Source of the DNA: Eubacteriales bacterium
GTDB taxonomy: Bacteria; Bacillota; Clostridia; Oscillospirales; CAG-272
Length of the DNA: 64,000 nucleotides
Direction of reading: 5' to 3'
NCBI GenBank assembly: GCA_045602215.1
Contig: JAZSBE010000011.1
Coordinates: 12,203-76,202, forward strand
In this document: positions 8,026-26,232 of the stretch, piece by piece
Layout: the number at the start of each line of letters is the position of its first letter
Position numbering within the stretch: position 1 is the first letter of the stretch
The notes under the pieces: model-generated
What the model was told of the DNA's origin: nothing
The model's input: the letters and a program-made list of their open reading frames with translations, nothing else
Database searches by the model: none
Translations under genes and position numbers: made by a program

Positions 8026-9645
8026 GTGAATTCGGGCAAAAAAAGTTTTTTGATGAATGGAATGACTCTGGCGGCGGCGGCACTTCTTATGCGGACAGTG
8101 TCGGTATCTTTCAACGCCTATACGGTGTCCCGTGTCGGCGCAGAAGGGATCGGTTTGTATACGCTGACCATGAGCCTTTACGGCTTTTTCCTGACGCTTG
8201 CAACCTCAGGCGTCGGTCTTGCGCTCACTCGACTGGTAGCGGACGCACTCAGTCGGGGTGACGGCGACTACGCACGCGCTATGATGAAACGGTGTGCCGT
8301 GTACGCTTTGGTTTGCGGAAGTGCCGCATCTTTGGCGCTGTTCAGCTTCGCGCCCTTCCTTTCAACGTACGTTTTGCACGACGCGAGGACATTGCCCTCG
8401 CTTCGCTTGCTATCGCTCGGGCTTGTACCGATCGCGCTTTCTTCGGTCTTCAGCGGTTATTTCATTGCTGTGCGCCGCGCGGCAAGGAATGCGGCAATTC
8501 AAGTGGCGGAGCAGTGGATCAAGATCGCGTTGACCGTCTTTTTGCTCGGGCGCATGATCCCTTACGGCGTGACCTATGCGTGCGTGGGGTTGGTGCTGGG
8601 CGGCATGATCGGGGAATGTCTTTCCTGCCTGATCTTGCTGATCACCTGCCGTATCGATTATCTGCGCCATCCGCTTACCCGCCTGCCCCGAAACGAACGC
8701 AAAAAACCGGGGCTTCGTCCGCTTCTCGAGATCTCCGTACCGATTGCGGGCGGTGCTTATGCGCGTTCCGCGCTTGTCACGGTCGAACATATGCTCATCC
8801 CCGTGGCGCTTGCCATGGCGGGCAGCGACCGTTCGGGCGCGCTTGCCTCGTACGGTGCTTTGCACAGTATGGCGTTCCCCATCGTCATTTACCCGATGGC
8901 ACTTCTGTCTTCATTTGCTTCTCTTTTAGTGCCCGAATATACGCAAAGTCTTGTGCGTGACGAGAAAAAACGGCTCAGGCATATGACCGCAGAGTCACTT
9001 TCAACCACGCTTGCCTTCGCTTTGTGTGTCGGTGCCGCGCTTTTCCTGTTCGGCGAAGAGCTTGGTCTGTGCCTTTATTCGTCGGCAGAAGCAGGACGTT
9101 TCATCCGCTTGCTTGCGCCGCTTGTGCCGCTGATGTATCTTGATCACGTCACCGATGCCATGCTCAAAGGGATCGGACTGCAACTTTACGCCATGGTGGT
9201 CAATATTGCCGATTCCATACTCAGCATTGTACTTGTCATGTTGCTTTTGCCGCGCTTCGGTGCCGTCGGTTACGTCTACGTCATCATGATTGCAGAAGCC
9301 TTCAATTTTCTTTGCAGTTATATCGGCATGCGGCGCAAGATCGGTGCGGGGCTGACCTTTTCCATGCTGTTGCGCCCTCTGCCTTCTGTGCTCGCAGCCA
9401 CCCTTTTTATGCGCCTTTTCAGCTTCGGTAAGGCAACCGACGGCGTGGGGCTTTCCTTGAAAATCATGCTCTTTTGTGCAATGGCATTTCTTTGTTTTTT
9501 TGTGCATCACGAGATTGACAAAAATTTATCGAAGAAAGAGGCGCAAAGTCAGACGGCACAAGAGAAAACCGAGATTTTGCCCAGACGGTGCGGCTTTTCG
9601 GTTAACACCGTTTTTTGCACAAAAAATTTGCCAAAAGACGGTTGA
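8026..9645 (+). CDS. spoVB: MOP-superfamily polysaccharide/peptidoglycan-precursor flippase, stage V sporulation protein B-like
   Basis: 539 aa with about 14 TM helices. The N-terminus (LLMRTVSVSFNAYTVSRVGAEGIGLYTL) is typical of SpoVB/MurJ-like proteins. GTG start after AGAGGGGA. The symbol is tentative. Confidence 0.75.
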   Translation: MNSGKKSFLMNGMTLAAAALLMRTVSVSFNAYTVSRVGAEGIGLYTLTMSLYGFFLTLATSGVGLALTRLVADALSRGDGDYARAMMKRCAVYALVCGSAASLALFSFAPFLSTYVLHDARTLPSLRLLSLGLVPIALSSVFSGYFIAVRRAARNAAIQVAEQWIKIALTVFLLGRMIPYGVTYACVGLVLGGMIGECLSCLILLITCRIDYLRHPLTRLPRNERKKPGLRPLLEISVPIAGGAYARSALVTVEHMLIPVALAMAGSDRSGALASYGALHSMAFPIVIYPMALLSSFASLLVPEYTQSLVRDEKKRLRHMTAESLSTTLAFALCVGAALFLFGEELGLCLYSSAEAGRFIRLLAPLVPLMYLDHVTDAMLKGIGLQLYAMVVNIADSILSIVLVMLLLPRFGAVGYVYVIMIAEAFNFLCSYIGMRRKIGAGLTFSMLLRPLPSVLAATLFMRLFSFGKATDGVGLSLKIMLFCAMAFLCFFVHHEIDKNLSKKEAQSQTAQEKTEILPRRCGFSVNTVFCTKNLPKDG

Positions 9646-13462: not shown

Positions 13463-14071
13463 ATGACAACGATTATTTCCATCATGATTGCGGCTCTCCT
13501 GACCGACAACTTCATTTTCTCGCGTTTTTACGGTTGCTGTCCCTTCCTCGGTGTTTCGGATAAACCCTCGACTGCGCTCGGTATGGGTTGTGCCGTCACT
13601 TTCGTCATGTCGCTGTCGGGTGCCGCCACTTACGCCATTTATCATGCATTTTTGATGCCGAGCACCTTGAACGGCAATCATGACCTGACTTTTTTGCAGA
13701 CCATTGCCTTCATTCTCGTGATTGCCGTTCTCGTGCAGTTCATCGAGATGTTCCTGCGCCGCTACATTCCCGCCCTTTACGGCGCACTCGGCATTTTCCT
13801 GCCCCTCATCACCACCAACTGTGCGGTGCTGGGTGCGGCGCTTGAGCACGTCAATCGCGGCTACGATTTCGTGCAGTCTGTGGTTTACTGTGCGTTTGCG
13901 GGTATGGGCTTTACGTTGGCGATTACGGTTTTTGCGGGTGTGCGCGAAAAGATGGTGCTTTCCTCGCCTCCCAGACCGTTCCGCGGGTTCCCCTTGACTC
14001 TGATTGCGGCAGGCTTGCTTGCGATGGCATTCACGGGCTTTTCGGGGCTTGACGTTATGAAATATCTTTGA
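13463..14071 (+). CDS. rnfA: Rnf complex subunit A
   Basis: 202 aa, 6 TM helices, paralogous to RnfE (NFIFSRFYGCCPFLGVS). Confidence 0.9.
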   Translation: MTTIISIMIAALLTDNFIFSRFYGCCPFLGVSDKPSTALGMGCAVTFVMSLSGAATYAIYHAFLMPSTLNGNHDLTFLQTIAFILVIAVLVQFIEMFLRRYIPALYGALGIFLPLITTNCAVLGAALEHVNRGYDFVQSVVYCAFAGMGFTLAITVFAGVREKMVLSSPPRPFRGFPLTLIAAGLLAMAFTGFSGLDVMKYL

Positions 14072-14089
14072 TTCGGGAGGACGAGAGTT

Positions 14090-14917
14090 ATGGATTATTT
14101 GATTCCCGCACTTTTGTTCGCCCTGATGGGTCTTTGCTTTGCTTTGCTTCTGGCAATCGCATCACGCGTGTTTGCGATCAAGCAGGATCCGCGCATTGCC
14201 GAGCTGACCGAATGTTTGCCCGGTGCCAATTGCGGCGGTTGCGGCTATACGGGTTGTGAAGCGTATGCTGAGGCTGTTGCCAAAGGGGAAGCCGAAATCG
14301 GCGCATGCAATCCCGGCGGTACGGCGACGGCGAAAGCCATGGGCGCGATCATGGGTGTTGAAGTCGGTGAGGTCGTGCGCCTTCGCGCACAAGTTATGTG
14401 TTCGGGTGTATTGGGAGCCGCCAAGATCAAGTATCATTATGCAGGCGCGCCCGATTGCACGTCTGCCGCACGGTTGGGCGGCGGCGACAAGCTTTGCCCG
14501 AACGGTTGCATTGGCCTTGGAAGTTGTGTCACTGTCTGTCCTTCCAATGCGATCAGCGTCAAAAACGGCGTTGCGTACGTAGAGCCCTCTCTTTGCAGTG
14601 CCTGCGGCGTTTGTGTCAATACCTGTCCTAAGAATATCATTCGTCTTGTTCCTTATGATTCGCCCTATTTTGTCGGCTGTTCTTCGACCGATAAGGGCGC
14701 ACAAACGCGTGCATACTGTTCGGTCGGTTGCATCGGATGTAAGATTTGTGAACGCGCATGCGAGGCAGATGCCATCCATGTTGACGGCGCACTTGCTTCG
14801 ATCGATTACGGCAAATGCACGGGTTGCGGCGCTTGTGTTGCCAAGTGCCCACGCAAGATCATCCACAGCGTGAGCGAAGACGGTGAAAAGAAGACCGTGG
14901 TATGCGTTACGGCGTAA
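14090..14917 (+). CDS. rnfB: Rnf complex subunit B (polyferredoxin)
   Basis: 275 aa with an N-terminal TM helix, a CGGCGYTGC cluster and several CxxCxxCxxxCP ferredoxin motifs. Confidence 0.9.
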   Translation: MDYLIPALLFALMGLCFALLLAIASRVFAIKQDPRIAELTECLPGANCGGCGYTGCEAYAEAVAKGEAEIGACNPGGTATAKAMGAIMGVEVGEVVRLRAQVMCSGVLGAAKIKYHYAGAPDCTSAARLGGGDKLCPNGCIGLGSCVTVCPSNAISVKNGVAYVEPSLCSACGVCVNTCPKNIIRLVPYDSPYFVGCSSTDKGAQTRAYCSVGCIGCKICERACEADAIHVDGALASIDYGKCTGCGACVAKCPRKIIHSVSEDGEKKTVVCVTA

Positions 14918-15045
14918 CCTTTAGTCAAAAATTGATAAAAAGTCAAGACCATCGGTTCAACCATATCGCAAATCCGGAAAGGGATTTATATCGCTGGGGC
15001 TATCTCAAATTACTTTTTTGAGATAGTTGCCTATGCAAAAACAAC

Positions 15046-15086
15046 AAAAAATCAAGGTCATCTCAACGAATGGCCTTGATTTTTTG
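15046..15086. terminator. bidirectional terminator between the rnf operon (+) and the lipoprotein gene (-)
   Basis: Reads aaaaa-atcaaggtcat-ctcaacga-atggccttgat-ttttt. A second hairpin (ctatctcaa..ttgagatag) lies at about 14998-15027. Confidence 0.7.
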
Positions 15087-15196
15087 TTTGAGTTGCACAT
15101 AGCGTTCACAGTTTGTTATGCCATGAAACAGCCCCTGTTGGCGTCCTTTGCGTTTTGTTTGGTGACCGAAATAGATGACATTGTTTTATATGAGAT

Positions 15197-16681
15197 CTAT
15201 CCGTTCTTGGAATTGCCGTTTTGAAGCTGCTCAATGATCGCATCGTATGATACGGCGTTTTCATCAAGTCTTACCGCCTTTGAAAAATCAAAAGCCGAGT
15301 TGATGGCATTATTATAGTCGGCTTCGCTTACGGGCATATCGTCTATAAAATACTCACAATAAATATCATATTCTTGGTTCCCAATATGCTGATATCTTTC
15401 CGTATACCTTGCGTTCAAGGTTTTGGAAAAACCATTCTCGTTAAGCTTATATACTTCGTCGTAATAAAGCCCCATATGACCGTTTTGATTGATTATATTT
15501 CCACTTTTCTCAATATACTTTCCGCCACCTGTACGACTCAAATACTGATATATAACAATATCATTTTTGAAAGAACAAATCATATCGCCTTCAGCTTCGC
15601 TTGCACCACGCAAATATAGCTCGGGAATATCATCCCCGTCAATAAAAACAAGCGCAAATAAATAATGAGAGTCCTTTTTGTCTTTCAAAAAATTCAAATA
15701 TGCTTTTTTACAATCGGCAAGTGTCTGTTCCTCGGTTTTATCAGCCGTGGACGGAGCTGTATCAAAACGAATAAACTGTTGTTCGGAATTGACCAAAGCG
15801 TCCGCCATTGCCGAAATAGCTTCGCTTTTTGTTTCTGTGTTGATTGTGTTCCAATATACAATTTTTATTTGAGTTTCCTCTATTTCTTCATAATTGTTTT
15901 TAAACTGATTTTTTTGCTTTTCAAACTCTGCCTTGTCGACCTCGTTGCCATCGCAATAATAGCGCTTATTATTCTCGGCAGACGTTACCTCTTGGAAAAG
16001 AACGTCAAACTTGAATTGGTCGTTTAATGTCGATGTGATCGTATACCCTTCCAATCCGTCGCGAAGAGAGCCTTCATTGACGATAAGATAGTTTCCGTCA
16101 TTATTTCTGTACACACAAAGATATACGTTATTCCAATCTTTATAATGAGGTGTATCTCCGAGCACGCATAACATCTCACCGTCTTCAAGATCATACGCAA
16201 CAACACAGACGTTGCCCATAGATCCGCCTGAGTAAGCGACAACGATTTCGGGGGTATTATCAAAGTTCAAATCCATTAAAGCAACGCCTAAACACCCATA
16301 TTCTATTCGTTCATAATAATCATCTGCAGAGAGTACATTTATAATTTTTTCTTTCCACAATGATCGTTCTTGGTTTGAAATAAAAGCATATTGGGCAACA
16401 AAAGCAGGGTCTTCGCCACCGCAAACCGAACACACACCCGAGGAATAAGAGTGACTTAATACCGTTCCCTCTGTTTGACTACAAACAGAACATGTCTTGG
16501 GTGCGGTGCAGGTCGCTGCGACATACGTATGCCCTAAAGACGTTCCCTCTGTTTGATTACAAACAGAACACGTCTTGGGTGCGGTGCAGGTCGCAGATTT
16601 CCATTCATGCTCATGCCCACAAGAGGCAAATACTAACACAAGAGCCACCAAAAGCGTAGAAATCCATAAAATTTTCTTCAT
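15197..16681 (-). CDS. lipoprotein with duplicated ATCTAPKTCSVC Cys-motif modules (function unknown)
   Basis: 494 aa with a lipobox signal peptide (MKKILWISTLLVALVLVFASC). Two 26-aa repeats (HxW/Y..ATCTAPKTCSVC(N/S)QTEG) are followed by a third CSVCG. The gene is AT-rich, and GGAGGA lies 9 nt upstream. Confidence 0.8.
   Translation of the reverse strand: MKKILWISTLLVALVLVFASCGHEHEWKSATCTAPKTCSVCNQTEGTSLGHTYVAATCTAPKTCSVCSQTEGTVLSHSYSSGVCSVCGGEDPAFVAQYAFISNQERSLWKEKIINVLSADDYYERIEYGCLGVALMDLNFDNTPEIVVAYSGGSMGNVCVVAYDLEDGEMLCVLGDTPHYKDWNNVYLCVYRNNDGNYLIVNEGSLRDGLEGYTITSTLNDQFKFDVLFQEVTSAENNKRYYCDGNEVDKAEFEKQKNQFKNNYEEIEETQIKIVYWNTINTETKSEAISAMADALVNSEQQFIRFDTAPSTADKTEEQTLADCKKAYLNFLKDKKDSHYLFALVFIDGDDIPELYLRGASEAEGDMICSFKNDIVIYQYLSRTGGGKYIEKSGNIINQNGHMGLYYDEVYKLNENGFSKTLNARYTERYQHIGNQEYDIYCEYFIDDMPVSEADYNNAINSAFDFSKAVRLDENAVSYDAIIEQLQNGNSKNG
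16464..16594 (-). repeat. tandem 78-nt duplication inside the lipoprotein gene (53-nt cores at 16464-16516 and 16542-16594, 2 mismatches)
   Basis: The core gttccctctgtttga(c/t)tacaaacagaaca(t/c)gtcttgggtgcggtgcaggtcgc occurs twice. It encodes the repeated Cys motif. Confidence 0.85.
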
Positions 16682-16882
16682 TGTTCTTTTCCTCCAAAAG
16701 CAACAAAGTATTCAAACCATATTGACAAACGAAAAAATCAAAGTATATAAATTATAGCTTATATCGAATTAAAGATCAATAGTTCAAAAAAGAACATCCT
16801 TTAAGCAAAAGGCAAAGACCTCTTTCGTTTTGGAAAACTCATTTTACAGAAAAACCATAAAACTAAGATAAATCCTTGAAAA

Positions 16883-17238
16883 CTATTTGTTTGCATTCTG
16901 TTTTGCTGTCTGAACAGAGCGAACAAGCAAAAATCTTATAGTTGAACAGGTCTTGTCAAGTGCTTTGTGTCTTGCTTCATCAATATAATCACTTTTCAAA
17001 GCATTTCAAGCCACTTGCTTGTTTCGTTGGTTTCTTTAAGAGCAATTTCGAGCTTCGATATAAAATCCTTTTTGCCTTGTGCATACTGTGCTTCGTGGAT
17101 ATTTGCGCCGATAGATGTACCGCTTCTGCCGATTTGGTTTGCAATAATGGTTTCGTGATTCGCTTTTAGAAACCTAACAAGGTTTATAATGTCAACGGAA
17201 AAATCCATTGAAAGCTCGACAAGTTTGTTTTCTTTCAT
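16883..17238 (-). pseudogene. four-helix-bundle protein gene (23S rRNA intervening-sequence protein family) disrupted by a 1-nt frameshift near 16997-16999
   Basis: The ORF track gives 16996..17238 (80 aa), ending ..ALKETNETSKWLEML*. In the -1 frame it continues as LKSDYIDEARHKALDKTCSTIRFLLVRSVQTAKQNANK* down to the TAG at 16883-16885, which matches the usual family C-terminus. The break lies in a short T-run (cttTGaaaag). Confidence 0.7.
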
Positions 17239-17259
17239 AGTAGTATCTCCTTTTTTGCT

Positions 17260-17288
17260 ATTATATCACAAAATCGCATGTCTGTCAA
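17260..17288 (-). promoter_or_regulatory. sigma-A-type promoter (TTGACA-17-TATAAT) of the four-helix-bundle gene
   Basis: Minus strand reads TTGACAgacatgcgattttgtgaTATAATagcaaaaaaGGAGatactactATG. Confidence 0.6.
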
Positions 17289-17460
17289 ATGATGCATCGC
17301 CTGCGGCGATATGATGCATTTGCTTCGCAAATATGATGTTGCTCCACTGCGTTCCGCAATGATGCGATGTTTGCCATAAAATGTGGCGAAGCCACACATC
17401 ATTAGGCGAAGCCGTCATCATTGGCGAAGCCTACATCATTTGCCGCAGGCAAACATCATT
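17288..17460. repeat. array of about 8 degenerate ~20-nt units (AATGATG-n3-5-GC(C/T)T(C/G)CG..), four direct then four inverted, forming a long imperfect palindrome
   Basis: Forward units: aatgatgcatcgcctgcggcg / atgatgcatttgcttcgca / atgatgttgctcc.. / atgatgcgatgtttgcc. Inverted units: ggcgaagccacacatcatt / aggcgaagccgtcatcatt / ggcgaagcctacatcatt / tgccgcaggcaaacatcatt. Confidence 0.8.
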
Positions 17461-17461
17461 C

Positions 17462-17502
17462 AAAAAAGCTTAATTTGTCCGGTAGACAAATTAGGCTTTT
17501 TT
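17462..17502. terminator. bidirectional hairpin terminator downstream of tRNA-Gln
   Basis: Reads aaaaaa-gcttaatttgtc-cggta-gacaaattaggc-tttttt. Confidence 0.75.
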
Positions 17503-17504
17503 GT

Positions 17505-17580
17505 TGGCTGCGGCACTAGGATTCGAACCTAGGTAATGACGGAGTCAGAGTCCGTTGCCTTACCGCTTGGCGATGCCGCA
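17505..17580 (-). tRNA. tRNA-Gln (anticodon CUG), CCA encoded
   Basis: Minus strand reads UGCGGCAUCGCCAAGCGGUAAGGCAACGGACUCUGACUCCGUCAUUACCUAGGUUCGAAUCCUAGUGCCGCAGCCA. It has a 7-bp acceptor stem, anticodon arm ACGGA/CUCUGAC/UCCGU and T arm CUAGG/UUCGAAU/CCUAG. It is very similar to E. coli tRNA-Gln. Confidence 0.93.
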
Positions 17581-17592
17581 TTAACAGATGAT

Positions 17593-17621
17593 ATTATAGC
17601 AGATTCGGGGGCGTTTGTCAA
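17593..17621 (-). promoter_or_regulatory. sigma-A-type promoter of tRNA-Gln (TTGACA-17-TATAAT)
   Basis: Minus strand reads TTGACAaacgcccccgaatctgcTATAAT, ending about 12 nt before the tRNA 5' end. An A-rich UP-like tract lies upstream. Confidence 0.65.
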
Positions 17622-17962
17622 GTGTTTTTTTGCTTTTTCTTATATTTTTTTCGAGTTTTTTGCTTTTATTCCTTTTCTTCGAAAAAAACGTTTCTTCGCG
17701 TCCTTTTCTCGGGATCATTTTCGTTTCTTTTCAAAAATATACCGATTTTTCCTTTGCGCAAAGTATGATTTGAGGGCGATCGGAAACACTATCATCAAGC
17801 GTCGCGACGGGCGCGCGTGGCGTTTCTTTTTCTGTTTTGCGATCACAAAATTTGGATGCATGATGTAATTTTGTTAGACATGAAAGCACGGAAATCGGGC
17901 AAATTAGTAACAGCAATTCATGCGGGTTGCATTTGACAAAGCAAAAAGGGATGGAAAGGGAA

Positions 17963-19162
17963 ATGAACGCAAAAAAAAAAGGTTGGAAGCTGCTCGGCTG
18001 CTCGCTTCTGGCGGTGCTTCAGATGATTGGTTGCGCCGCCCGCGTGGGTGCGCTGGGGGCGGACGGGAAGGATGCCACAATGATGCAGGAACTCCCCGCA
18101 CAAGCGGCTTTTGCGGCTCTGGCGGCAGATCGATCGGGTGACGGCTCTGTTGCGACCGCGGTTGGTGTGTGCGTGGATGAATCCGTGGGCGGAGCGGTTG
18201 CGGCATTCGAAGCGAGTGAGCTGGAAAATTTAACGGTTACCCCCGGCGGGATGCCGTTTGGAGTGAAATTTATGACCGAGGGTGTGACGGTGGTCGGCTT
18301 TTGTGACGTGGAGGTCGATGGGAAGAAGGTCAATCCTGCGTCGGCGGCAGGACTAAAGCTTCGGGACGTGATCCTGCGCGTCAACGGCGAGCCCTTGCAG
18401 AGTGCGGCGGGCTTGACCCAAAAAATTGAGGGGTGCGAGGGCAAGGAGCTTGTTCTTCACTGCCGCAGAAATAAGGAAGAGGTGGAGATCCATTTAAGCC
18501 CCGTCTACTCCAATTCCGAGGCTCGTTACAAGACGGGCATTTGGGTGCGTGACAGCGGCGCGGGAATTGGAACCGTGACCTTCATTCTTCCCGAGACTGG
18601 CGCATTCGCAGGGCTTGGGCACGGCATCTGCGATGGTGATACGGGAGAGCTGGTCTCCATGCGACGGGGGACGGTGTCCGATGTGACCATCAGCTCGGTG
18701 GTCAAGGGGGTCTCAGGCGCACCCGGGGAGCTCAAAGGATATTTCAATCCTGGCAAGGTTGGTGCACTTCTCGGCAATACCTCCTGCGGCGTTTGGGGCG
18801 TTTTTTCGGAGCTGCCCGAGGCGGTTGCCGAGCCCATGAAGGTCGGACTGCGCGGGGAGGTGCAGGATGGCGCGGCGTATATCCTCTCGACCTTGGATAG
18901 CAACAAGACCGAACGCTATGACGTTGAGATATCAAACATCAACCGCGACGCAACAGGCTCAAAATGCTTCACCGTCAAGATCACCGATCCCGATCTGCTT
19001 GCGGTGTCGGGCGGGATCGTGCAGGGCATGAGCGGATCCCCCATCATTCAAAACGATAAGATCATCGGCGCGGTCACGCACGTCCTCATCAACGACCCTA
19101 CCACGGGCTACGGAATCTTCCTTGAAAATATGCTCGTTAATATGCCCGTGCCGGCGAGGTAA
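17963..19162 (+). CDS. spoIVB: stage IV sporulation protein B (SpoIVB, S55 signalling serine peptidase with PDZ domain)
   Basis: The ORF track gives 17927..19162. I take the start at MNAKKKGWKLLGC (ATG 17963) after GGAAAGGGA. A PDZ segment (GLKLRDVILRVNGEPL) and the catalytic motifs GLGHGICD and GMSGSPIIQNDKIIGAVTHV are present. Confidence 0.9.
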   Translation: MNAKKKGWKLLGCSLLAVLQMIGCAARVGALGADGKDATMMQELPAQAAFAALAADRSGDGSVATAVGVCVDESVGGAVAAFEASELENLTVTPGGMPFGVKFMTEGVTVVGFCDVEVDGKKVNPASAAGLKLRDVILRVNGEPLQSAAGLTQKIEGCEGKELVLHCRRNKEEVEIHLSPVYSNSEARYKTGIWVRDSGAGIGTVTFILPETGAFAGLGHGICDGDTGELVSMRRGTVSDVTISSVVKGVSGAPGELKGYFNPGKVGALLGNTSCGVWGVFSELPEAVAEPMKVGLRGEVQDGAAYILSTLDSNKTERYDVEISNINRDATGSKCFTVKITDPDLLAVSGGIVQGMSGSPIIQNDKIIGAVTHVLINDPTTGYGIFLENMLVNMPVPAR

Positions 19163-19259
19163 AGTAATCTGGGAAGGCGGGGAAACCTTTTTTAAGAAGT
19201 TTCCTTGTCTTCTCATTTTTTATTCTCGATGATATCGAGAATGAGATAAGAGCTACTTC

Positions 19260-19502
19260 TTACTCTAGCCCCAACAACCAGGTGACTGAAACCTTTAAAA
19301 TTCGTGCCAATTCTCGAAGTTCGTAATCTGCAACAAATCTAGTTCCAATCTCAATACGTGAGATACTGTCTCGCTCTATAATGATTCCGGCAACCTGTAA
19401 TTGTGCGGCAAGATCGCTTTGAGTTAAGCGGTGCTTGCATCGTGCCTCGTGAACTCTGTCCCCGCAAATGTTTTTCTTACCATTATAGTCGTATATTTTC
19501 AC
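19260..19502 (-). CDS. XRE-family helix-turn-helix transcriptional regulator
   Basis: The ORF track gives 19260..19514 (TTG). A GTG at 19502 lies 5 nt after GGAGG and gives MKIYDYNGKK.. The HTH is LTQSDLAAQLQVAGIIIERDSISRIEIG. The gene is divergent from the SPFH operon. Confidence 0.85.
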   Translation of the reverse strand: MKIYDYNGKKNICGDRVHEARCKHRLTQSDLAAQLQVAGIIIERDSISRIEIGTRFVADYELRELARILKVSVTWLLGLE

Positions 19503-19539
19503 AATTACCTCCAAAATTCGATAAAGTTAAGAATTACTC

Positions 19540-19568
19540 TTGACTTTAACATATTTTTTATGTATAAT
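19540..19568 (+). promoter_or_regulatory. sigma-A-type promoter (TTGACT-17-TATAAT) of the SPFH operon
   Basis: Reads TTGACTttaacatattttttatgTATAAT in the 124-nt XRE/SPFH intergenic region. Confidence 0.6.
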
Positions 19569-19626
19569 TGTGTTAAAGATCAGAATATATGTGTTTTTTT
19601 GAAAAACCAAGTGAAAGGAGAACACT

Positions 19627-20811
19627 ATGGCAATAGCAGATATTATCAAATATGAAGGAGATAATAGTACCTTTATATGGAAGCATCCATGCGAAGATTT
19701 TAACACAACTTCGCAGCTGATTGTCCACGAATCGCAGGAAGCGGTATTCTTTGTTAACGGTCAAGCTCTTGATCTGTTCGGAGCTGGACGACATACGCTT
19801 GAAACGCAGAATATTCCGCTGCTCCGTAGAATTATTAACATTCCTACGGGTGGAGAAACTCCGTTTCATTGTGAGGTCTATTTTATCAATAAGACTGAAC
19901 AAATGGCAATTCGTTGGGGGACAGACTCAAAGGTTCAGTATGTAGAACCTACCTATAAGTTCCCGATCTCCATTGGAGCATCAGGCGAGATGACATTGAG
20001 TGTCGAGGATTCAAGAAAACTCTTAATCAAGCTTGTGGGAACAGAGGACAATCTTGATCGTCAACGACTTGTATCGTATTTCCGTGCGGTGTTGATGACA
20101 AAAGTCAAAACCTATATGGCGCAGACCATGCGGCAGAACGCTATCAACATTTTTGAGATTGACGAGCAGCTTGAAGCATTTTCAAAAGAGCTTCATTCAA
20201 AGCTTATAGATGATTTCCTTGAGTATGGTATTAATCTCAACCGTTTCTATGTAACAACAATAGTCAAGCCAGATGGCGACCCTCAATACGAGCGCTTCAA
20301 GGAGTTGCACTTCCGTCAGTATGCGGATATTGCCGAGGCAAAGCTTAAGCAACAGACTGATATCATTCACGCACAGACAGAGGCGCAGAAGGTCGTCATT
20401 GACTCTCAGGCACAAGCAACCAAACGTGCACAAGAAGGTTATACCTATCAGCAAGAACGTGGCTTTGACGTGGCGCAGGATGCAGCAAAGAATGAAGGTG
20501 CAGGACAGTTCACCAATATGGGCATCGGTCTTGGTATGATGGCAGGTGTTGGCGGCGGCATCGCTAATATGGTTGGTGGCGCTGTAAATACAGCATTCAA
20601 TGGAGTAAACACTCAACCGCAATCACAACCTTCTGCTCCAGCAGATACCTTCTGCGAAAACTGCGGTGCAAAGCTCACGCCCGGCGCGGCGTTTTGCGAT
20701 GAATGTGGCACAAAGGTAGCCGTTCCCGATAATGTTTGCAGAAATTGTGGCTATCAGTTTGAACGCCCCGGCAAGTTCTGCCCCAAATGCGGTACAAAGA
20801 GGGAGGGCTAA
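19627..20811 (+). CDS. SPFH/Band-7 domain protein (YdjI / virion-core-protein-like subfamily) with C-terminal double zinc ribbon
   Basis: 394 aa. The N-terminus (MAIADIIKYEGDNSTFIWKHP..LIVHESQEAVFFVNGQ) is typical of the PF13421-type SPFH family. A Gly/Met-rich linker follows, then four CxxC pairs (CENC, CDEC, CRNC, CPKC). The RBS is AAAGGAG. Confidence 0.85.
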   Translation: MAIADIIKYEGDNSTFIWKHPCEDFNTTSQLIVHESQEAVFFVNGQALDLFGAGRHTLETQNIPLLRRIINIPTGGETPFHCEVYFINKTEQMAIRWGTDSKVQYVEPTYKFPISIGASGEMTLSVEDSRKLLIKLVGTEDNLDRQRLVSYFRAVLMTKVKTYMAQTMRQNAINIFEIDEQLEAFSKELHSKLIDDFLEYGINLNRFYVTTIVKPDGDPQYERFKELHFRQYADIAEAKLKQQTDIIHAQTEAQKVVIDSQAQATKRAQEGYTYQQERGFDVAQDAAKNEGAGQFTNMGIGLGMMAGVGGGIANMVGGAVNTAFNGVNTQPQSQPSAPADTFCENCGAKLTPGAAFCDECGTKVAVPDNVCRNCGYQFERPGKFCPKCGTKREG

Positions 20812-20814
20812 GCG

Positions 20815-21483
20815 ATGAAGAAGAATCATTTGATATCCTATCTCGCACTCGGTGTTGTGTTTGTGCTCTTTAACATAATTGCATTCGTGATTCCTACCAA
20901 CAAGACAGTTGTGTTTTGGACGGCTTATGCTTTTTCAGTGGTAGCCTTTGCGGTGCAAATTCCTTTATGGAAGATTGCTCTTGGCCAAAGGGATACTTTG
21001 AAAAGCAAATTTCTTGGGATTCCCGTTATTCACATTGGAATTACCTATCTGACCATCCAACTAATTGCCTTTGCAATCTTTATGATCTTCCCGACACTTC
21101 CCGTGTGGTTAGCGGTAGTTGTATGTACGATTATCCTTGCACTCTCTGCTCTCTTCGCTATCGCGGGACAAGCGGGGGCTAACGAGATCAATCGCGTGGA
21201 AGAAAAGATTAAGGTTAAACGATTATTTATTCAATTTCTGCAAACCGATATTGAAATGCTCGTTGAAACCGAAACCGATGATGAAACTCAAGCGGAACTC
21301 AAAAAGCTTTCCGAAAAGGTACGTTTTAGCGATCCAATGAGCCACGAAATGCTTGGTGAATTAGAATCTCGCATTTCTGCCAAAGTCGAAGAAATGAAAA
21401 CGGTGTCGGATAAGAAAGTTCTCATTGGAGAGATTGATGTATTACTTACAGAACGCAATATGAAGTGTAAAATATTAAAATAA
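20815..21483 (+). CDS. 4-TM membrane protein with helical cytoplasmic C-terminal domain (function unknown)
   Basis: 222 aa. It starts 3 nt after the SPFH stop, behind GGGAGGG. Four hydrophobic helices are followed by a charged coiled-coil-like tail. Confidence 0.8.
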   Translation: MKKNHLISYLALGVVFVLFNIIAFVIPTNKTVVFWTAYAFSVVAFAVQIPLWKIALGQRDTLKSKFLGIPVIHIGITYLTIQLIAFAIFMIFPTLPVWLAVVVCTIILALSALFAIAGQAGANEINRVEEKIKVKRLFIQFLQTDIEMLVETETDDETQAELKKLSEKVRFSDPMSHEMLGELESRISAKVEEMKTVSDKKVLIGEIDVLLTERNMKCKILK

Positions 21484-21507
21484 CAATGCAAACGGAGATA
21501 AAGACAA

Positions 21508-23013
21508 ATGAAGCAACTAACTTGCGAAATGTGCGGAGGCACAGAGCTCATTAAACAGGATGGCTTTTTTGTGTGCCAAACTTGCGGTTGCAAGTATTCT
21601 GTTGAAGAAGCCAAGAAAATGATGATTGAAGGCACTGTGGATGTCCAAGGTACTGTTAAAGTGGACAATTCCGCCTTTGTTCAAAAATATCTTGCTAATG
21701 CTCGCCGCGCTAAACAAAAAGAGGACTGGAAAGAAACTGAAAAATACTATAATATGGTTGAGCAAAACGATCCAACCAATATTGAAGCCATTTTTTACAG
21801 TACCTATGCACAAGTTAAATTGGCTTTATTAGAAGCGGAAACCAAAGATAAAAGACAAAGTGTTTTTAACACATTAATAAAAGGCGTATCTGTAATAGAT
21901 GATAACTATGATAACGCAAATGAAGAACATCATAAATTATTATTTGAAATAATGGATGCTATTAACACATTAAAAGAAGGCACTATTGTCCCGACAACAC
22001 ATTTGCAAGAATATGTAACCAAAAATGGCTATGGTAATATTGTAGACCGTAATCAACTTGTGGAAAATGATTCCTTGAATGTCACCTACAATATGATAGA
22101 TCAGGTTATTGAAGCTTATGGGGACTCATTAGCCAATATTACTGTGGTACAATGTAAAGATTTATCCGAAAAAGAGATTCTTAAAAAGGCTTGTGAAGCA
22201 TTGCGAAATGGTTACTCGTACTTTGCTCTAGGTTATTTTGGCGAGTATACAAAGAAGAAAGCCGATTCACCCGTTGGTTATGCAGGCAAAGCTTTGGCTA
22301 TCTGTGTTACAAACAAAGGCGAGAAAAATGCTTTGGCGTATTTAAGAAAAGCCGCACAGTATAATGCTGTGGAAAATGAGGAAAAAGATGCTCTTGATTT
22401 TATTATCAAATGTAAGTATGGTGATAATATCACATTATTAATGGTCGCTTCCGCGAATTATGATTATGAAGCAGTAAAATACCTGGTAGAAGCTGGAAGT
22501 GATATTGATGCAAAATCAAATTATGCTGTCACTGCTTTATGGTATGTATGTAGAAAAAAACCTGACGAGACTAATGTTGAGGCTGCAAGAGAAATTGCAA
22601 AATTGTTGTTAGATCATGGCGCGAAAATTGATGTTAAAAACACAGGCGGAGTTGATTTATACAACAAAGATACAGATTATGAAATTGCAGAAATGATAAG
22701 AGTCAAATTTCCAAATGCCCAAGAAGGAGTTGCAGCTGGAAAAAGTGGTTGCTATGTAGCCACTGCGGTTTATGGCTCGTATGATTGTCCTCAAGTATGG
22801 ACGCTTCGCCGTTACCGTGATGATACTCTCGGATCTACTTGGTACGGAAGATTGTTCATTCATACATACTACGCAATCAGTCCTACTCTCGTAAAATGGT
22901 TCGGCAACACAAATTGGTTCAAAAAGCTTTGGAAGGGCAAACTTGACCGTATGGTTACAAAACTTCAAAAGAATGGTGTAGAAAACACTCCGTATGAAGA
23001 TAAGCAATGGTGA
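21508..23013 (+). CDS. zinc-ribbon / helical-repeat / ankyrin-repeat protein with C-terminal conserved Cys box (function unknown)
   Basis: 501 aa. The N-terminus has the ribbon CEMCGG..CQTCGC. Ankyrin-like repeats are present (NITLLMVASANYDYEAVKYLVEAGSDIDAK; AREIAKLLLDHGAKIDVKN). The C-terminus reads GCYVATAVYGSYDCPQVWTLRRYRD plus an aromatic-rich tail. This is the most AT-rich gene of the window. Confidence 0.8.
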   Translation: MKQLTCEMCGGTELIKQDGFFVCQTCGCKYSVEEAKKMMIEGTVDVQGTVKVDNSAFVQKYLANARRAKQKEDWKETEKYYNMVEQNDPTNIEAIFYSTYAQVKLALLEAETKDKRQSVFNTLIKGVSVIDDNYDNANEEHHKLLFEIMDAINTLKEGTIVPTTHLQEYVTKNGYGNIVDRNQLVENDSLNVTYNMIDQVIEAYGDSLANITVVQCKDLSEKEILKKACEALRNGYSYFALGYFGEYTKKKADSPVGYAGKALAICVTNKGEKNALAYLRKAAQYNAVENEEKDALDFIIKCKYGDNITLLMVASANYDYEAVKYLVEAGSDIDAKSNYAVTALWYVCRKKPDETNVEAAREIAKLLLDHGAKIDVKNTGGVDLYNKDTDYEIAEMIRVKFPNAQEGVAAGKSGCYVATAVYGSYDCPQVWTLRRYRDDTLGSTWYGRLFIHTYYAISPTLVKWFGNTNWFKKLWKGKLDRMVTKLQKNGVENTPYEDKQW

Positions 23014-23060
23014 AAATTCTGTGTAAATATATCATGCTGTAGGAATAAAATGCAGAGTAT

Positions 23061-23097
23061 AAAAAAGGCAATCTCCTTATCTGGAGATTGCCTCTTG
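23061..23097. terminator. bidirectional terminator between the SPFH operon (+) and pflA (-)
   Basis: Reads aaaaa-aggcaatctcc-ttatct-ggagattgcct-cttgcgttatttt. Confidence 0.75.
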
Positions 23098-23842: not shown

Positions 23843-24085
23843 TCAGATCTGATCGTGGAAGGTTCTGGAGATGACCTCGTCCTGCTGCTCCTTGGTAAGC
23901 TTAATGAAGTTTACCGCGTAGCCGCTCACGCGAACGGTGAGCTGGGGGTACTTTTCGGGATGCGCCTGCGCGTCCAGAAGAGTTTCTCTTGTGAAAACGT
24001 TTACGTTGAGGTGGTGACCGCCCTTTTGAACGTAGCCGTCCAGGAGGTTGACCAGATTGTCAATTTGATTTTGTGTTGCTGCCAT
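23843..24085 (-). CDS. stand-alone glycyl-radical domain (GrcA/YfiD-like; corresponds to the C-terminal ~75 aa of PflB)
   Basis: The ORF track gives 23843..24106 (TTG). The ATG at 24085 lies 6-7 nt after AAAGGAG. The sequence is [76 protein letters not shown], and RVSGYAV is the radical-glycine loop. Confidence 0.85.
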
Positions 24086-24123
24086 GGAAAACTCCTTTCT
24101 TTGCAATCTGCAAAATAGAGATA

Positions 24124-26232
24124 TTAGTTGTTGTCGTCAAGTCCCTCAAAGAGCGTGGGGGATGCGCACGCGCCATTCGAGCAATCGAAGCTGACCGCTA
24201 CGTCGATGTCTCCTGCGAACACACGGTCGTCCTTACCCAGCGCGCCGGGAATGATGGAGAAGGTGTTGGAGATTCCGTCCTGTGCGTCGATGAAGGGAAG
24301 CTTTGCAACGGATGCGAGGGATGCAACTGCGCCGTGGGTATCTCTGCGGTGCATGGGGTTTGCTCCGGGAGCGAACGCCTCACCCTTCTTACGTCCGTCG
24401 GGGGTTGCACCGGTATTCTTACCGTATACCACGTTGGAGGTAATGGTCAGAATAGAGGTTGTGGGAACGCCGCCTCTGTAAGTATGGTTCTTACGGATGT
24501 GCTCCATGAAGCGGTGAACGATATCGTAAGCAAGCGTATCTACGCGGTCATCGTCGTTTCCGAACTTGGGGAAGTCTCCCTCTACCTCGTAGTCAACTGC
24601 CAGTCCCTGCTCGTTGCGGAGAACCTTAACCTTGCCGTACTTGATCGCGGACAGAGAGTCTGCAACGACCGAGAGACCGGCAATTCCGGTTGCGAACCAA
24701 CGGGTAACGTCCTTATCGTGAAGAGCCATCTGGAGACGCTCGTAGCAGTACTTGTCATGCATATAGTGAATGACGTTGAGGGTGTTTACGTAAACGTTAG
24801 CAAGCCACTTCATCATATCGTCATACTTCTGCATAACCTCGTCGAAATCAAGATACTCGGAGGTGATGGGACGGTAAGCGGGACCAACCTGCTTTCCGGA
24901 GATCTCATCCACACCGCCGTTGATCGCGTAAAGCAAGCACTTTGCAAGGTTTGCTCTTGCGCCGAAGAACTGCATTTCCTTACCCAGACGCATAGAGGAT
25001 ACGCAGCATGCGATCGCATAGTCGTCGCCATGGGTGAATCTCATCAGGTCGTCATTCTCGTACTGAACGGAGGACGTCTCGATGGAGGTCTTTGCGCAGA
25101 AGCGCTTGAAGTTCTCGGGAAGCTTTACAGACCAGAGCACCGTGAGGTTGGGCTCGGGAGCAGCTCCGAGGTTGGACAGGGTGTGCAGGTAACGGTAGGA
25201 CATCTTGGTGACAAGGTGAGAACCGCTGATGGAAACACCGCCGATGGACTCGGTTACCCACTGGGGGTCGCCGGAGAAGAGCGCGTTGTACTCGGGAGTA
25301 CGTGCGAACTTGATCAGACGGAGCTTCATGATGAAATGGTCAACCATTTCCTGAATCTCGTTCTCGGTGAACAGACCCTTCTTGAGGTCTCTCTCCGCGT
25401 AGATGTCAAGGAAGGTGGAGGTACGTCCGAGGGACATTGCGGCACCGTTCTGCTCCTTGACTGCTGCAAGGTAGCCGAAGTACAGCCACTGGATCGCTTC
25501 CTTTACGTTGCCGGCAGGTCTGGAAATGTCAAAGCCGTAGGATGCAGCCATTTCCTTGAGCTCTTCAAGCGCGCGGATCTGCTCAGACAGCTCTTCTCTC
25601 GCACGGATGATGTGAGAGAACATTGCAGAACGAGTGGTCTCCTTCTGCTCCTTCTTGTCCTCGATCAGACGGTCTACACCGTAGAGCGCAACTCTTCTGT
25701 AGTCACCGATGATTCTTCCGCGGCCGTAAGCATCGGGAAGACCGGTGATGATATGGCTGGAGCGGCATGCTCTCATCTCGGGGGTGTAGGCATCAAAAAC
25801 GCCTGCGTTGTGAGTCTTTCTGTACTTGGTGAAGAACTCCTTTACCTCGGGGTCGATGGTGTAGCCGTTGTCAGCGCAAGCCTTCTCTGCCATACGGATT
25901 CCGCCGTAGGGCATCAGCGCACGCTTGAGGGGCTTTTCGGTCTGAAGACCGACGATCGTCTCCTTCTCACGGTTGAGGTATCCGGGAGCGTGGGAGGTAA
26001 TGGTGGAGATTACCTTGGTGTCCATATCCAATACGCCGCCGCGCTCTCTTTCCTGTCTGGTCAGATCCATGACCTGATCCCACAGGTCGAGCGTGTTCTG
26101 CGTGGGACCTTCCAGGAAGGACTCGTCTCCGTCATAAGGAGTATAGTTATGCTTGATAAAGCTTCTTACATTAATTTCCTTGGTCCAGGTAGCAGTACGG
26201 AACCCTTCCCATTCTTTGTAGATTTCGTGCAT
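24124..26232 (-). CDS. pflB: pyruvate formate-lyase catalytic core lacking its own glycyl-radical domain (split pflB)
   Basis: The ORF track gives 24124..26463. The likely start is [11 protein letters not shown] (ATG 26232, 9 nt after GAAGGG), with an alternative at 26241. It is collinear with PflB down to ..[29 protein letters not shown]. It then diverges into a 33-aa tail ([33 protein letters not shown]) and stops. Confidence 0.88.

Follow-up and report, generated by a model that had tools for sequence, protein, structure and literature searches.

A low-GC (guanine plus cytosine) islet in the 64,000-nucleotide stretch of the Eubacteriales contig JAZSBE010000011.1 analysed here (the window) is a horizontally acquired cassette, situated between the genes spoIVB and pflA. 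It carries an XRE-family regulator gene and, divergent from it, a three-gene operon that encodes a soluble SPFH protein (gene 1), a membrane protein with four transmembrane (TM) helices (gene 2) and a protein that starts with a zinc ribbon (gene 3). The three genes recur together in other genomes, where the third is polymorphic. We propose that the module is a membrane platform, mobile and under XRE control, whose exchangeable subunit supplies specificity or effector activity, and that it acts as a conflict system against phages or mobile elements, and we give this reading a probability of about one half. The main features are listed below by position in the window; other loci that were compared are designated by the letter L and a number.

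19163..23062, no strand: acquired islet of low GC, bounded by the stop codon of spoIVB and the terminator of pflA, with the GC minimum of the window and no counterpart in L100
19260..19502, minus strand: XRE-family helix-turn-helix (HTH) regulator, 80 residues (Pfam HTH_3; PHROG transcriptional-repressor families)
19627..20811, plus strand: gene 1, soluble SPFH protein, 394 residues (Band_7_1 and DZR; N terminus MAIADIIKYEGDNSTFIWKHP)
20815..21483, plus strand: gene 2, four-TM membrane protein, 222 residues (AlphaFold2 (AF2) model, hydropathy, alignment)
21508..23013, plus strand: gene 3, 501 residues (list of open reading frames, ORFs)
21508..21672, plus strand: gene 3 head, N-terminal zinc ribbon C6, C9, C23, C26 with the EEAKKMM helix and GTVxVDNS (invariant Cys, comparison with L014)
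21673..22745, plus strand: gene 3 body, TPR-like and ankyrin helical solenoid (AF2, Foldseek, Pfam)
22750..22956, plus strand: gene 3 CFI-box-CTERM domain, residues 415-483, beginning GCYVATAVYGSYDCPQVWTLRRYRD (NCBIfam NF041770)

Co-conservation and third-gene polymorphism

The distribution of the module was scanned with one genome per species. Gene 1 is present, with 70-94% identity, at no fewer than 575 loci in species-representative genomes, mostly those of gut and rumen bacteria, and more than 120 clusters of it are found at 78-94% identity, some with hundreds of members. Co-conservation was counted on the 80 best of these loci (70-93% identity), which belong to Oscillospiraceae, Acutalibacteraceae, Lachnospiraceae, Christensenellales, Eggerthellaceae (on a 281-kb contig), Anaerolineaceae, Gastranaerophilaceae and others. 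The spread across phyla is backed by long contigs; the labels of some short contigs of metagenome-assembled genomes may be binning errors. A gene 2 homologue lies directly downstream of gene 1 in 77 of the 80 loci, and an ORF with an N-terminal CxxC..CxxC ribbon is found among the next genes in 63 of the 66 loci that have at least 2.5 kb of downstream sequence. This neighbourhood survey bears out the view of an earlier note, made from the window's sequence alone, that the three genes belong together as a trio. The median identity is 77% for gene 1, 52% for gene 2, 53% for the zinc-ribbon head and 81% for the CFI box when it is present.

The third-gene proteins share a constant head of approximately 55 residues (zinc ribbon, EEAKKMM helix and GTVxVDNS), in which C6, C9, C23 and C26 are invariant across the 71 proteins used for the body and domain counts. 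The bodies that follow the head fall into 18 clusters. They contain TPR repeats in 12 proteins, ankyrin repeats in five, the Ribosomal L7/L12 C-terminal domain in five, EF-Tu domain 2 in two and TIR_2 in two; other bodies carry DUF5640 or SMC-like coiled coils. The CFI box is carried by 31 of the 71. A full-length orthologue of the ankyrin-type gene 3 of the window is present in only 4 of the 80 loci, and its closest homologues (72-83% identity) occur in the same trio at L007, L009 and L011. Six loci (L029, L032, L035, L058, L081 and L090) have two head-bearing genes. At L014, which has the same spoIVB context and a gene 1 that is 93% identical, only the gene 3 body (21672-22746 in the window) is replaced, and the ends that encode the head and the CFI box are conserved. 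The difference at L014 is a cassette swap.

Homologues of gene 3 are also found beside a divergent XRE gene at L001:7623-9503, L003:7593-9509 and L005:7670-9236. They are 61-67% identical to gene 3 or represent a variant of about 410 residues, which is without ankyrin repeats and keeps the head and the CFI box. At L005, TIR-domain genes are situated approximately 7 kb downstream of the gene 3 homologue.

Some third-gene proteins combine several domains. The protein encoded at L058:5700-7370 runs from the zinc ribbon through TIR, EF-Tu domain 2 and an L12 fragment to the CFI box. Considered together, the proteins at L058:5700-7370, L081:11211-12902 and L026:6204-8183 carry behind the head either a TIR domain fused with EF-Tu domain 2 and an L12 fragment or, as their last part, the complete L7/L12 C-terminal domain. 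Translation-factor-like domains are found here on putative conflict proteins. A 57-residue HTH_17 (excisionase/MerR-like) ORF lies between gene 2 and the zinc-ribbon gene at L009:7809-7982 and also at L016, L043, L050 and L077. Unrelated small ORFs occupy this gap at other loci, and the window has none there.

Acquisition and mobility of the islet

The earlier note had estimated a sharp drop in composition over approximately 3.9 kb, and the computed values agree. The block 19163-23060 has a GC fraction of 0.401, the minimum among all 3.9-kb segments of the 64-kb sequence (mean 0.512, standard deviation 0.035). Windowed GC is 0.55-0.62 in spoIVB and 0.53-0.56 in pflA/pflB, against 0.32-0.51 in the islet, and the GC of third codon positions is 0.30-0.44 for the islet genes versus 0.68 for spoIVB and pflA. 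The lowest part of the islet is the gene 3 body, at 0.347.

A metagenome scan with the PflA of the window gave a sole close relative, L100, with a PflA that is 94% identical and a nucleotide identity of 88%. L100 aligns to window positions 23875-23083 and then, 26 nt later, to 19158-19034, so that 19159-23082 is without a counterpart. The deviating composition and the absence of the block between the spoIVB 3' end and pflA of L100 substantiate the acquisition that the earlier note had suspected. Of spoIVB, L100 retains no more than the final 44 codons, which adjoin pflA; the DNA upstream of them is unrelated cargo. Its spoIVB fragment begins at the same codon as the spoIVB repeats of L061 and L068 described below, and its junction sequence, TTGAC(C)ACACTCGTGTCGGG, is common with L061; these two features point to the same hotspot occupied by other cargo, an alternative occupancy. 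We rejected L100 as a virgin empty site because of the truncated spoIVB, the other cargo and the element-end motif that it has in common with L061.

The module is situated directly after spoIVB in the window, L014, L061 and L068, and the SpoIVB proteins of the latter three are 42-54% identical to that of the window. At L061, the regulator and the module lie between 109-nt direct repeats (8624-8732 and 13742-13850) of spoIVB codons ~368-403. At L068, the block lies between 116-nt direct repeats (9437-9552 and 13965-14080) of the same codons. There is no recombinase inside the bracketed block of either locus. Repeats of the spoIVB 3' end that flank the blocks in this way are the signature of integration into the 3' end of the gene. 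In the window islet itself, the ORF list has no recombinase, and a repeat and motif search revealed no flanking direct repeat or right-hand repeat and no junction motif.

In several genera of Clostridia, integration recurs at the spoIVB 3' end, a hotspot that starts near codon 368 (G-x-S-G-S-P-I motif; L100:822-960 as well). The cargo blocks at this hotspot measure 4.5-5.1 kb and have direct repeats of about 110 nt and no recombinase.

That the module adjoins spoIVB on its downstream side in the window and in three further genera could be taken as a link with sporulation, as this position is kept despite SpoIVB identities of 42-54%. However, the spoIVB 3'-end repeats of L061 and L068 mark an integration site and not an operon partnership, more than 90% of the loci are in unrelated contexts, and the module is also present in lineages labelled non-sporulating (Eggerthellaceae, Anaerolineaceae). 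We therefore consider a role in sporulation highly improbable and reject it, the association with spoIVB being explained by the integration repeats.

Mobility is also apparent away from spoIVB. The DNA similarity between the window and other loci is confined precisely to the segment from gene 1 to gene 3 (19612-23017), leaving out the XRE gene and the flanks. The two genes upstream of the module were tallied at approximately 72 loci: tyrosine integrases account for 15, serine resolvases for 12 and XRE-type HTH genes for 13. TnpV is found repeatedly on the downstream side (six times), and the remaining neighbours are diverse. The neighbours of the module on pNP21, a 20.5-kb plasmid of Butyrivibrio fibrisolvens, include a recombinase, a restriction S subunit, a YoeB/RelB pair and ArdC. 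The third-gene polymorphism, the occurrence of gene 3 apart from the platform genes, the mobility across phyla and the spoIVB hotspot had all escaped the earlier note.

Architecture of the proteins and the control region

Gene 1 encodes a Band_7_1 domain (PF13421) at residues 25-216 (E = 1.4e-36; 126.6 bits, cut-off 24; profile positions 11-197 of 211). C-terminal to this domain are a helical region, a hydrophobic stretch rich in Gly at approximately 291-325 and a double zinc ribbon at residues 342-389 (DZR, 7.4e-10) with CxxC pairs at 343, 357, 371 and 385. The protein is the SPFH/Band-7 protein with four terminal CxxC pairs that had been recognised earlier by eye. Hydropathy analysis gives no TM segment; the maximum over 19 residues (KD19) is 1.37, in the Gly-rich stretch. 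A sequence search of the PDB gave no match for gene 1. In a rumen metaproteome, a Band_7_1 protein of Megasphaera elsdenii was detected at the protein level (PMC7035244), which indicates that at least some members of the family are expressed in the gut. A search of sequencing runs for expression of the locus itself gave a top run with at most 9% of the words of the locus, and no RNA run was among the matches.

The model of gene 2 (AF2, predicted local distance difference test (pLDDT) score 91.8) contains four TM helices; the fourth is long and extends beyond the membrane to become part of a three-helix bundle in the cytoplasm. Together with hydropathy, the model confirms the four TM helices and helical tail of the earlier description. 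The alignment shows that the near-invariant motifs RxSDPMS and ERNxKCKxLK are situated in the cytoplasmic bundle. An exhaustive HMMER search places gene 2 in a family of approximately 2,200 representative clusters, nearly all of 220-230 residues, and gene 2 has no match in Pfam (E <= 0.1), NCBIfam, PADLOC or PHROGs. When the model was compared with the PDB by Foldseek, only insignificant helical-bundle matches were obtained (best E = 0.3). Long homologues of gene 2 were considered as fusions that might reveal a partner and were discarded, as they are fused to an extra TM helix and an extracytoplasmic domain and not to zinc-ribbon proteins. Two of these, P0356 (565 residues) and P0388 (504 residues), contain YKDS-type repeats in addition to a fifth TM helix and end in an extracytoplasmic domain, which suggests that the gene 2 family can also couple to the cell exterior.

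In the gene 3 protein, the solenoid at residues 55-410 is modelled with AF2 pLDDT above 90. Its Foldseek neighbours are FEM1B, DARPins, KANK and TPR proteins, among which are ankyrin/TPR substrate receptors, and Pfam identifies Ank_2 at residues 287-378 (E = 6.3e-9). The C-terminal domain matches CFI_box_CTERM (NF041770) over the complete model (5e-20; 71.1 bits, cut-off 40; positions 1-69 of 69). It is aromatic-rich (19% W/Y/F), is not a TM helix and has low confidence in the AF2 model. The ribbon, helical middle, ankyrin repeats and C-terminal Cys box that the earlier note had described are all present; the Cys box, which it had left without a family, was already curated as CFI_box_CTERM. 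Hydropathy gives no TM segment in gene 3. Because the protein is cytoplasmic and without a signal peptide, the CFI box is unlikely to be a surface-sorting signal. Three stretches (residues 40-51 with GTVxVDNS, residues 164-187 and the CFI box) are strongly conserved and modelled with low confidence, a combination that suggests partner-dependent interfaces. Neither the N-terminal half of gene 3 nor the CFI box matched the PDB in sequence searches. Literature searches found no paper on the CFI-box domain, for which there is a curated sequence model only and no solved relative.

The ORF list agrees with the four genes as they had first been delineated, including the 80-residue XRE gene on the minus strand and the gaps of 3 nt between genes 1 and 2 and 24 nt between genes 2 and 3. 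The XRE protein matches HTH_3 with E = 1.3e-5 (25.5 bits, cut-off 23), and phage-repressor families of PHROG match as well. Its gene has a GTG start with a GGAGG Shine-Dalgarno sequence 5 nt upstream; a longer form with a TTG start reaches 19514 in the ORF list. The control and terminator elements are as follows.

19503..19626, no strand: divergent control region (promoter scan and conservation in four loci)
19522-19535, no strand: operator-like repeat TAAAGTTAAGAATT, just upstream of the -35 element
19540-19545, plus strand: -35 element TTGACT, with the -10 element 11 of 12 consensus positions, spacer 17
19563-19568, plus strand: -10 element TATAAT (promoter scan)
19574-19587, no strand: operator-like repeat TAAAGATCAGAATA, just downstream of the -10 element
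19212..19252, no strand: inverted repeat with 19-nt arms, likely terminator, between the spoIVB stop and the XRE stop (repeat search)
23063..23096, no strand: bidirectional terminator hairpin, common to the operon and the convergent pflA (inverted repeat; equivalent hairpin in L100)

The promoter is the one read earlier from the letters of the window. The repeats follow the motif TAAAG[AT]T[AC]AGAAT, which is kept with the promoter block in the four loci that share the XRE gene (the window, L035, L061 and L064); at L061 it occurs as an 18-nt direct repeat. In L035, L061 and L064, the module is preceded by XRE copies that are approximately 90% identical. The motif copies on both sides of the promoter fit repressor operators that bracket it, so the operon is probably repressed by the XRE protein, and the conservation of these operator-like repeats argues for the divergent control proposed in the earlier note. 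Other loci use different HTH genes or none, which makes the regulator a replaceable accessory of the module. At the other end, the hairpin that had been assigned to the operon does exist, but its T run lies 3' of it on the minus strand and L100 has an equivalent hairpin between spoIVB and pflA. It is accordingly the bidirectional terminator of the host, against which the operon ends, and is at least as much a terminator of pflA as of the operon.

Related systems, possible functions and flanking genes

SPFH/flotillin-like proteins are ubiquitous and poorly understood in bacteria. To our knowledge, Bacillus subtilis YdjI is the only Band_7_1 member that has been studied, and it is tied to the Psp response. 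YdjI consists of a band-7 domain and a C-terminal zinc ribbon, YdjG of two zinc ribbons, a YpeB/NTF2-like domain and a TM segment, and YdjH of a TPM domain and a low-complexity or coiled-coil region; all three are linked to pspA (PMC11237479). YdjG and YdjH anchor YdjI and PspA to the membrane (PMC8581546).

Gene 1 has the same architecture as YdjI (Band_7_1, low-complexity region, C-terminal zinc ribbon). In both cases, the neighbouring genes code for a membrane protein and for one with a zinc ribbon at its N terminus, and we propose the same anchoring logic. The partners, compared by description, are different. In place of the TPM domain of YdjH, gene 2 has four TM helices and a helical tail, with no TPM match in Pfam. 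Gene 3 departs from YdjG in its single ribbon and in lacking both the NTF2-like domain and the TM segment. Its soluble product is a TPR/ankyrin solenoid that carries a CFI box, and the gene varies between genomes. The gene order also differs from that of pspA-ydjGHI, the window has an XRE gene and a sigma-70-like promoter and not a sigma-W promoter, and the unit is mobile and not core. The YdjGHI-like trio proposed earlier thus holds for gene 1, whereas gene 2 is not a TPM protein and gene 3 shares only the N-terminal zinc ribbon with YdjG.

In agreement with the earlier note, there is no pspA nearby, either in the window or at any locus examined. PspA_IM30 is missing from the genes called within 8 kb in six contexts, and the Pfam families that recur in a set of 277 neighbours do not include PspA. 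A tblastn search with an approximate E. coli PspA sequence, which is weak evidence, found no PspA in the window or in 92 loci. Since pspA is absent near the loci and only the SPFH component and the zinc-ribbon theme are in common, the module as an accessory set of the Psp system was ruled out.

More distant operons contain both types of partner. In Bacteroides finegoldii (L180; NZ_OY725907.1, 61383-63994), an SPFH protein (34% identity) is encoded with a 4-TM protein that has a helical tail and with a zinc-ribbon-headed TPR-like protein; in hhalign, the 4-TM protein matches the gene 2 profile with E = 7e-5 and a probability of 64%. NZ_OY725907.1 is annotated as a 109-kb plasmid and may be a chromosomal fragment or a chromid. 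On Paracoccus pFER4, the gene after that for the SPFH protein encodes a product that combines two zinc ribbons with a TM segment at the C terminus and corresponds to the description of YdjG. These operons place the module of the window in a second, PspA-independent branch of Band_7_1/zinc-ribbon operons. This branch has become a mobile cassette with a polymorphic third gene in gut Firmicutes.

Membrane-attached cages are known from SPFH proteins, HflK/C and flotillin among them. As in HflK/C-FtsH, stomatin-NfeD and flotillin, an SPFH scaffold is encoded here in an operon with an integral membrane partner, and by analogy it is likely to be oligomeric on the cytoplasmic face of the membrane and to enclose or organise that partner. 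Gene 1 differs in that it has a double zinc ribbon and no TM anchor of its own. Compared with these systems, the partner is neither a protease nor NfeD, and the variable zinc-ribbon-headed third subunit is without a counterpart there. Modular anti-phage examples include the Thoeris TIR proteins, the TM effectors of CBASS and Pycsar and the 4-TM KwaA of Kiwa. Such systems resemble the module as patchy, horizontally spread operons with a constant core and a hypervariable component, with TIR, TPR or ankyrin domains in the variable part, a small multi-TM protein and an XRE or CapH-like regulator upstream. They differ from it in that the module has no nucleotide-signalling enzyme or nuclease, its core is an SPFH protein, and its matches in PADLOC-DB v2 do not go beyond generic ankyrin and HTH. 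Literature searches found neither a described defence system with an SPFH core nor a description of the three-gene module. Its parts belong to known families (Band_7_1, XRE, ankyrin, CFI box) except for gene 2, which is without a curated model.

We propose the following mechanism for the module as a conflict system. The XRE protein would repress the operon. Upon expression, gene 1 would assemble into oligomers at the cytoplasmic side of the membrane, which is the usual behaviour of SPFH proteins, and gene 2 would anchor it there through its conserved cytoplasmic helical bundle. Gene 3 would dock on this platform via its constant zinc-ribbon head, and possibly via the CFI box also, completing a putative physical complex that displays an interchangeable body, here a TPR/ankyrin protein-binding solenoid. 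From genome to genome, the platform of genes 1 and 2 is kept constant, while the head-bearing gene is exchanged, occurs in duplicate or has been rebuilt with different domains for binding or effector activity, TIR among them. The variable subunit would then supply specificity or effector activity, and the membrane platform would be the common executor or scaffold.

The gradient from constant to variable genes, the horizontal spread, the association with recombinases and plasmids and the TIR variants are hallmarks of conflict systems and point to this reading. The accessory or conflict role favoured in the earlier note fits the module better than housekeeping. The neighbours include defence genes (PifA, AbiQ, SoFic, SduA, MADS, DRT, ThsA and TIR proteins; roughly 20 of 277), which agrees with a conflict role.

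Several observations weigh against a conflict role. That neighbour count is modest and descriptive only, without a control set. In PADLOC-DB v2.0.0, no model matched gene 1 or gene 2, the XRE gene gave generic HTH matches only, and gene 3 matched only PDC-M72A (5e-6), through its ankyrin repeats. The module is rare on viral contigs (six loci), which is neutral for defence and offers no positive link to phages, and phage records gave no real match to it. The version in the window has no recognisable enzymatic effector. In Bacteroides finegoldii, the trio follows HTH and YidD-like genes and is situated among the housekeeping genes obgE, adk, hpt and pgeF. L001, L003 and L005 have no SPFH or 4-TM gene within 8 kb of the gene 3 homologue, so that gene 3 homologues occur with an XRE gene alone and gene 3 is not bound to the trio. 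No co-variation was found between head type (A or B) and the divergence of gene 1 or gene 2; the same result also speaks for an interchangeable subunit, as it indicates that the third gene shuffles freely on a common backbone. The conflict role is, finally, a reading of sequence.

Among the alternatives, a YdjI-type scaffold for membrane integrity or envelope stress deserves the most attention, although we consider it rather unlikely. It would recruit PspA/IM30 or another repair factor encoded elsewhere, with the variable heads as client adaptors and no conflict role. The pairing of Band_7_1 SPFH proteins with zinc ribbons is ancient and extends across phyla, as seen in Bacteroides and Paracoccus, and both the housekeeping surroundings of the Bacteroides trio and a gene 3 body that is only a protein-binding solenoid in the window would suit such a scaffold. 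In contrast, pspA is absent near all of about 90 loci, there is no TPM protein, and the promoter is sigma-70-like and XRE-controlled and not of the extracytoplasmic function (ECF) stress type. An identity of 70-94% across phyla, recombinases and plasmids, absence in a close relative and a hypervariable third gene that includes TIR would also be unexpected.

The constant head of about 55 residues in front of unrelated bodies, with L7/L12 C-terminal and EF-Tu domain 2 among them, and the loci with several head-bearing genes (L029, L032, L035, L058, L081 and L090) would also be explained if gene 1 closed as a cage on the membrane around gene 2 and the head served as a targeting signal by which interchangeable cargo is loaded into the cage or onto it. 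Such a cage, which would be analogous to the membrane-attached assemblies of HflK/C and flotillin, might have a role that is not antiviral, for example regulation of translation factors via the L12- and EF-Tu-like domains. We regard it as unlikely, as the head type does not follow genes 1 or 2 and gene 3 homologues exist without them. Less probable still is a function that serves the carrier element and not the host, in stabilisation, exclusion or competition (addiction of plasmids or integrative and conjugative elements, entry exclusion). Integrases, resolvases and TnpV adjoin the module, it lies next to the YoeB/RelB pair and ArdC on pNP21, and XRE-type control is typical of mobile-element modules. 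The unit itself, however, contains no toxin- or antitoxin-like domain and no conjugation genes, it moves among very different types of element, and the blocks of the window, L061 and L068 are intact though without recombinase or transfer genes.

Returning to the conflict system, a more far-reaching form of it can be put forward tentatively and with some doubt. The module would belong to a widespread class of immune system that has gone unrecognised, in which gene 1 forms a cage or ring around gene 2, a latent membrane effector or anchor. The head would be the docking or loading signal for swappable sensors and effectors (TPR/ankyrin binders, TIR NADases, EF-Tu and L12 mimics), and platform and plug-ins would be exchanged horizontally among gut Firmicutes. 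The chance that the module is a new class of defence system is real but unproven. If it is, it would represent a membrane-scaffold-based mechanism that current defence-finding tools miss, and the CFI-box domain and the gene 2 family would thereby acquire a function. Otherwise, the module would still be a compact three-gene model for the membrane anchoring of a soluble SPFH protein and the recruitment of clients. In either case, the same SPFH scaffold as that of YdjI is put to a different use, one that is PspA-free, highly mobile and paired with a 4-TM family without a Pfam entry and with plug-in ribbon-headed proteins.

The surroundings of the islet contain two further features. A second low-GC stretch (0.32-0.44) is situated at 14900-17900, on the other side of spoIVB, so that spoIVB has AT-rich DNA, probably acquired, on both sides. 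It includes an ORF of 494 residues at 15197-16681 on the minus strand (GC 0.40, no Pfam match) and one of 80 residues at 16996-17238, which encodes a 23S-rRNA-intervening-sequence protein (four-helix bundle). Downstream of the islet, an exact-protein look-up found no protein on record identical to the PflA of the window. The adjacent pflB is split (23843-24126, minus strand): the large ORF, which ends at 24124, lacks the glycyl-radical domain, and this domain is supplied by a separate small ORF just upstream of pflA with its own AAAGGAG Shine-Dalgarno sequence (...RVSGYAVNF...). The split represents either a GrcA-like spare-part arrangement or a frameshifted gene.

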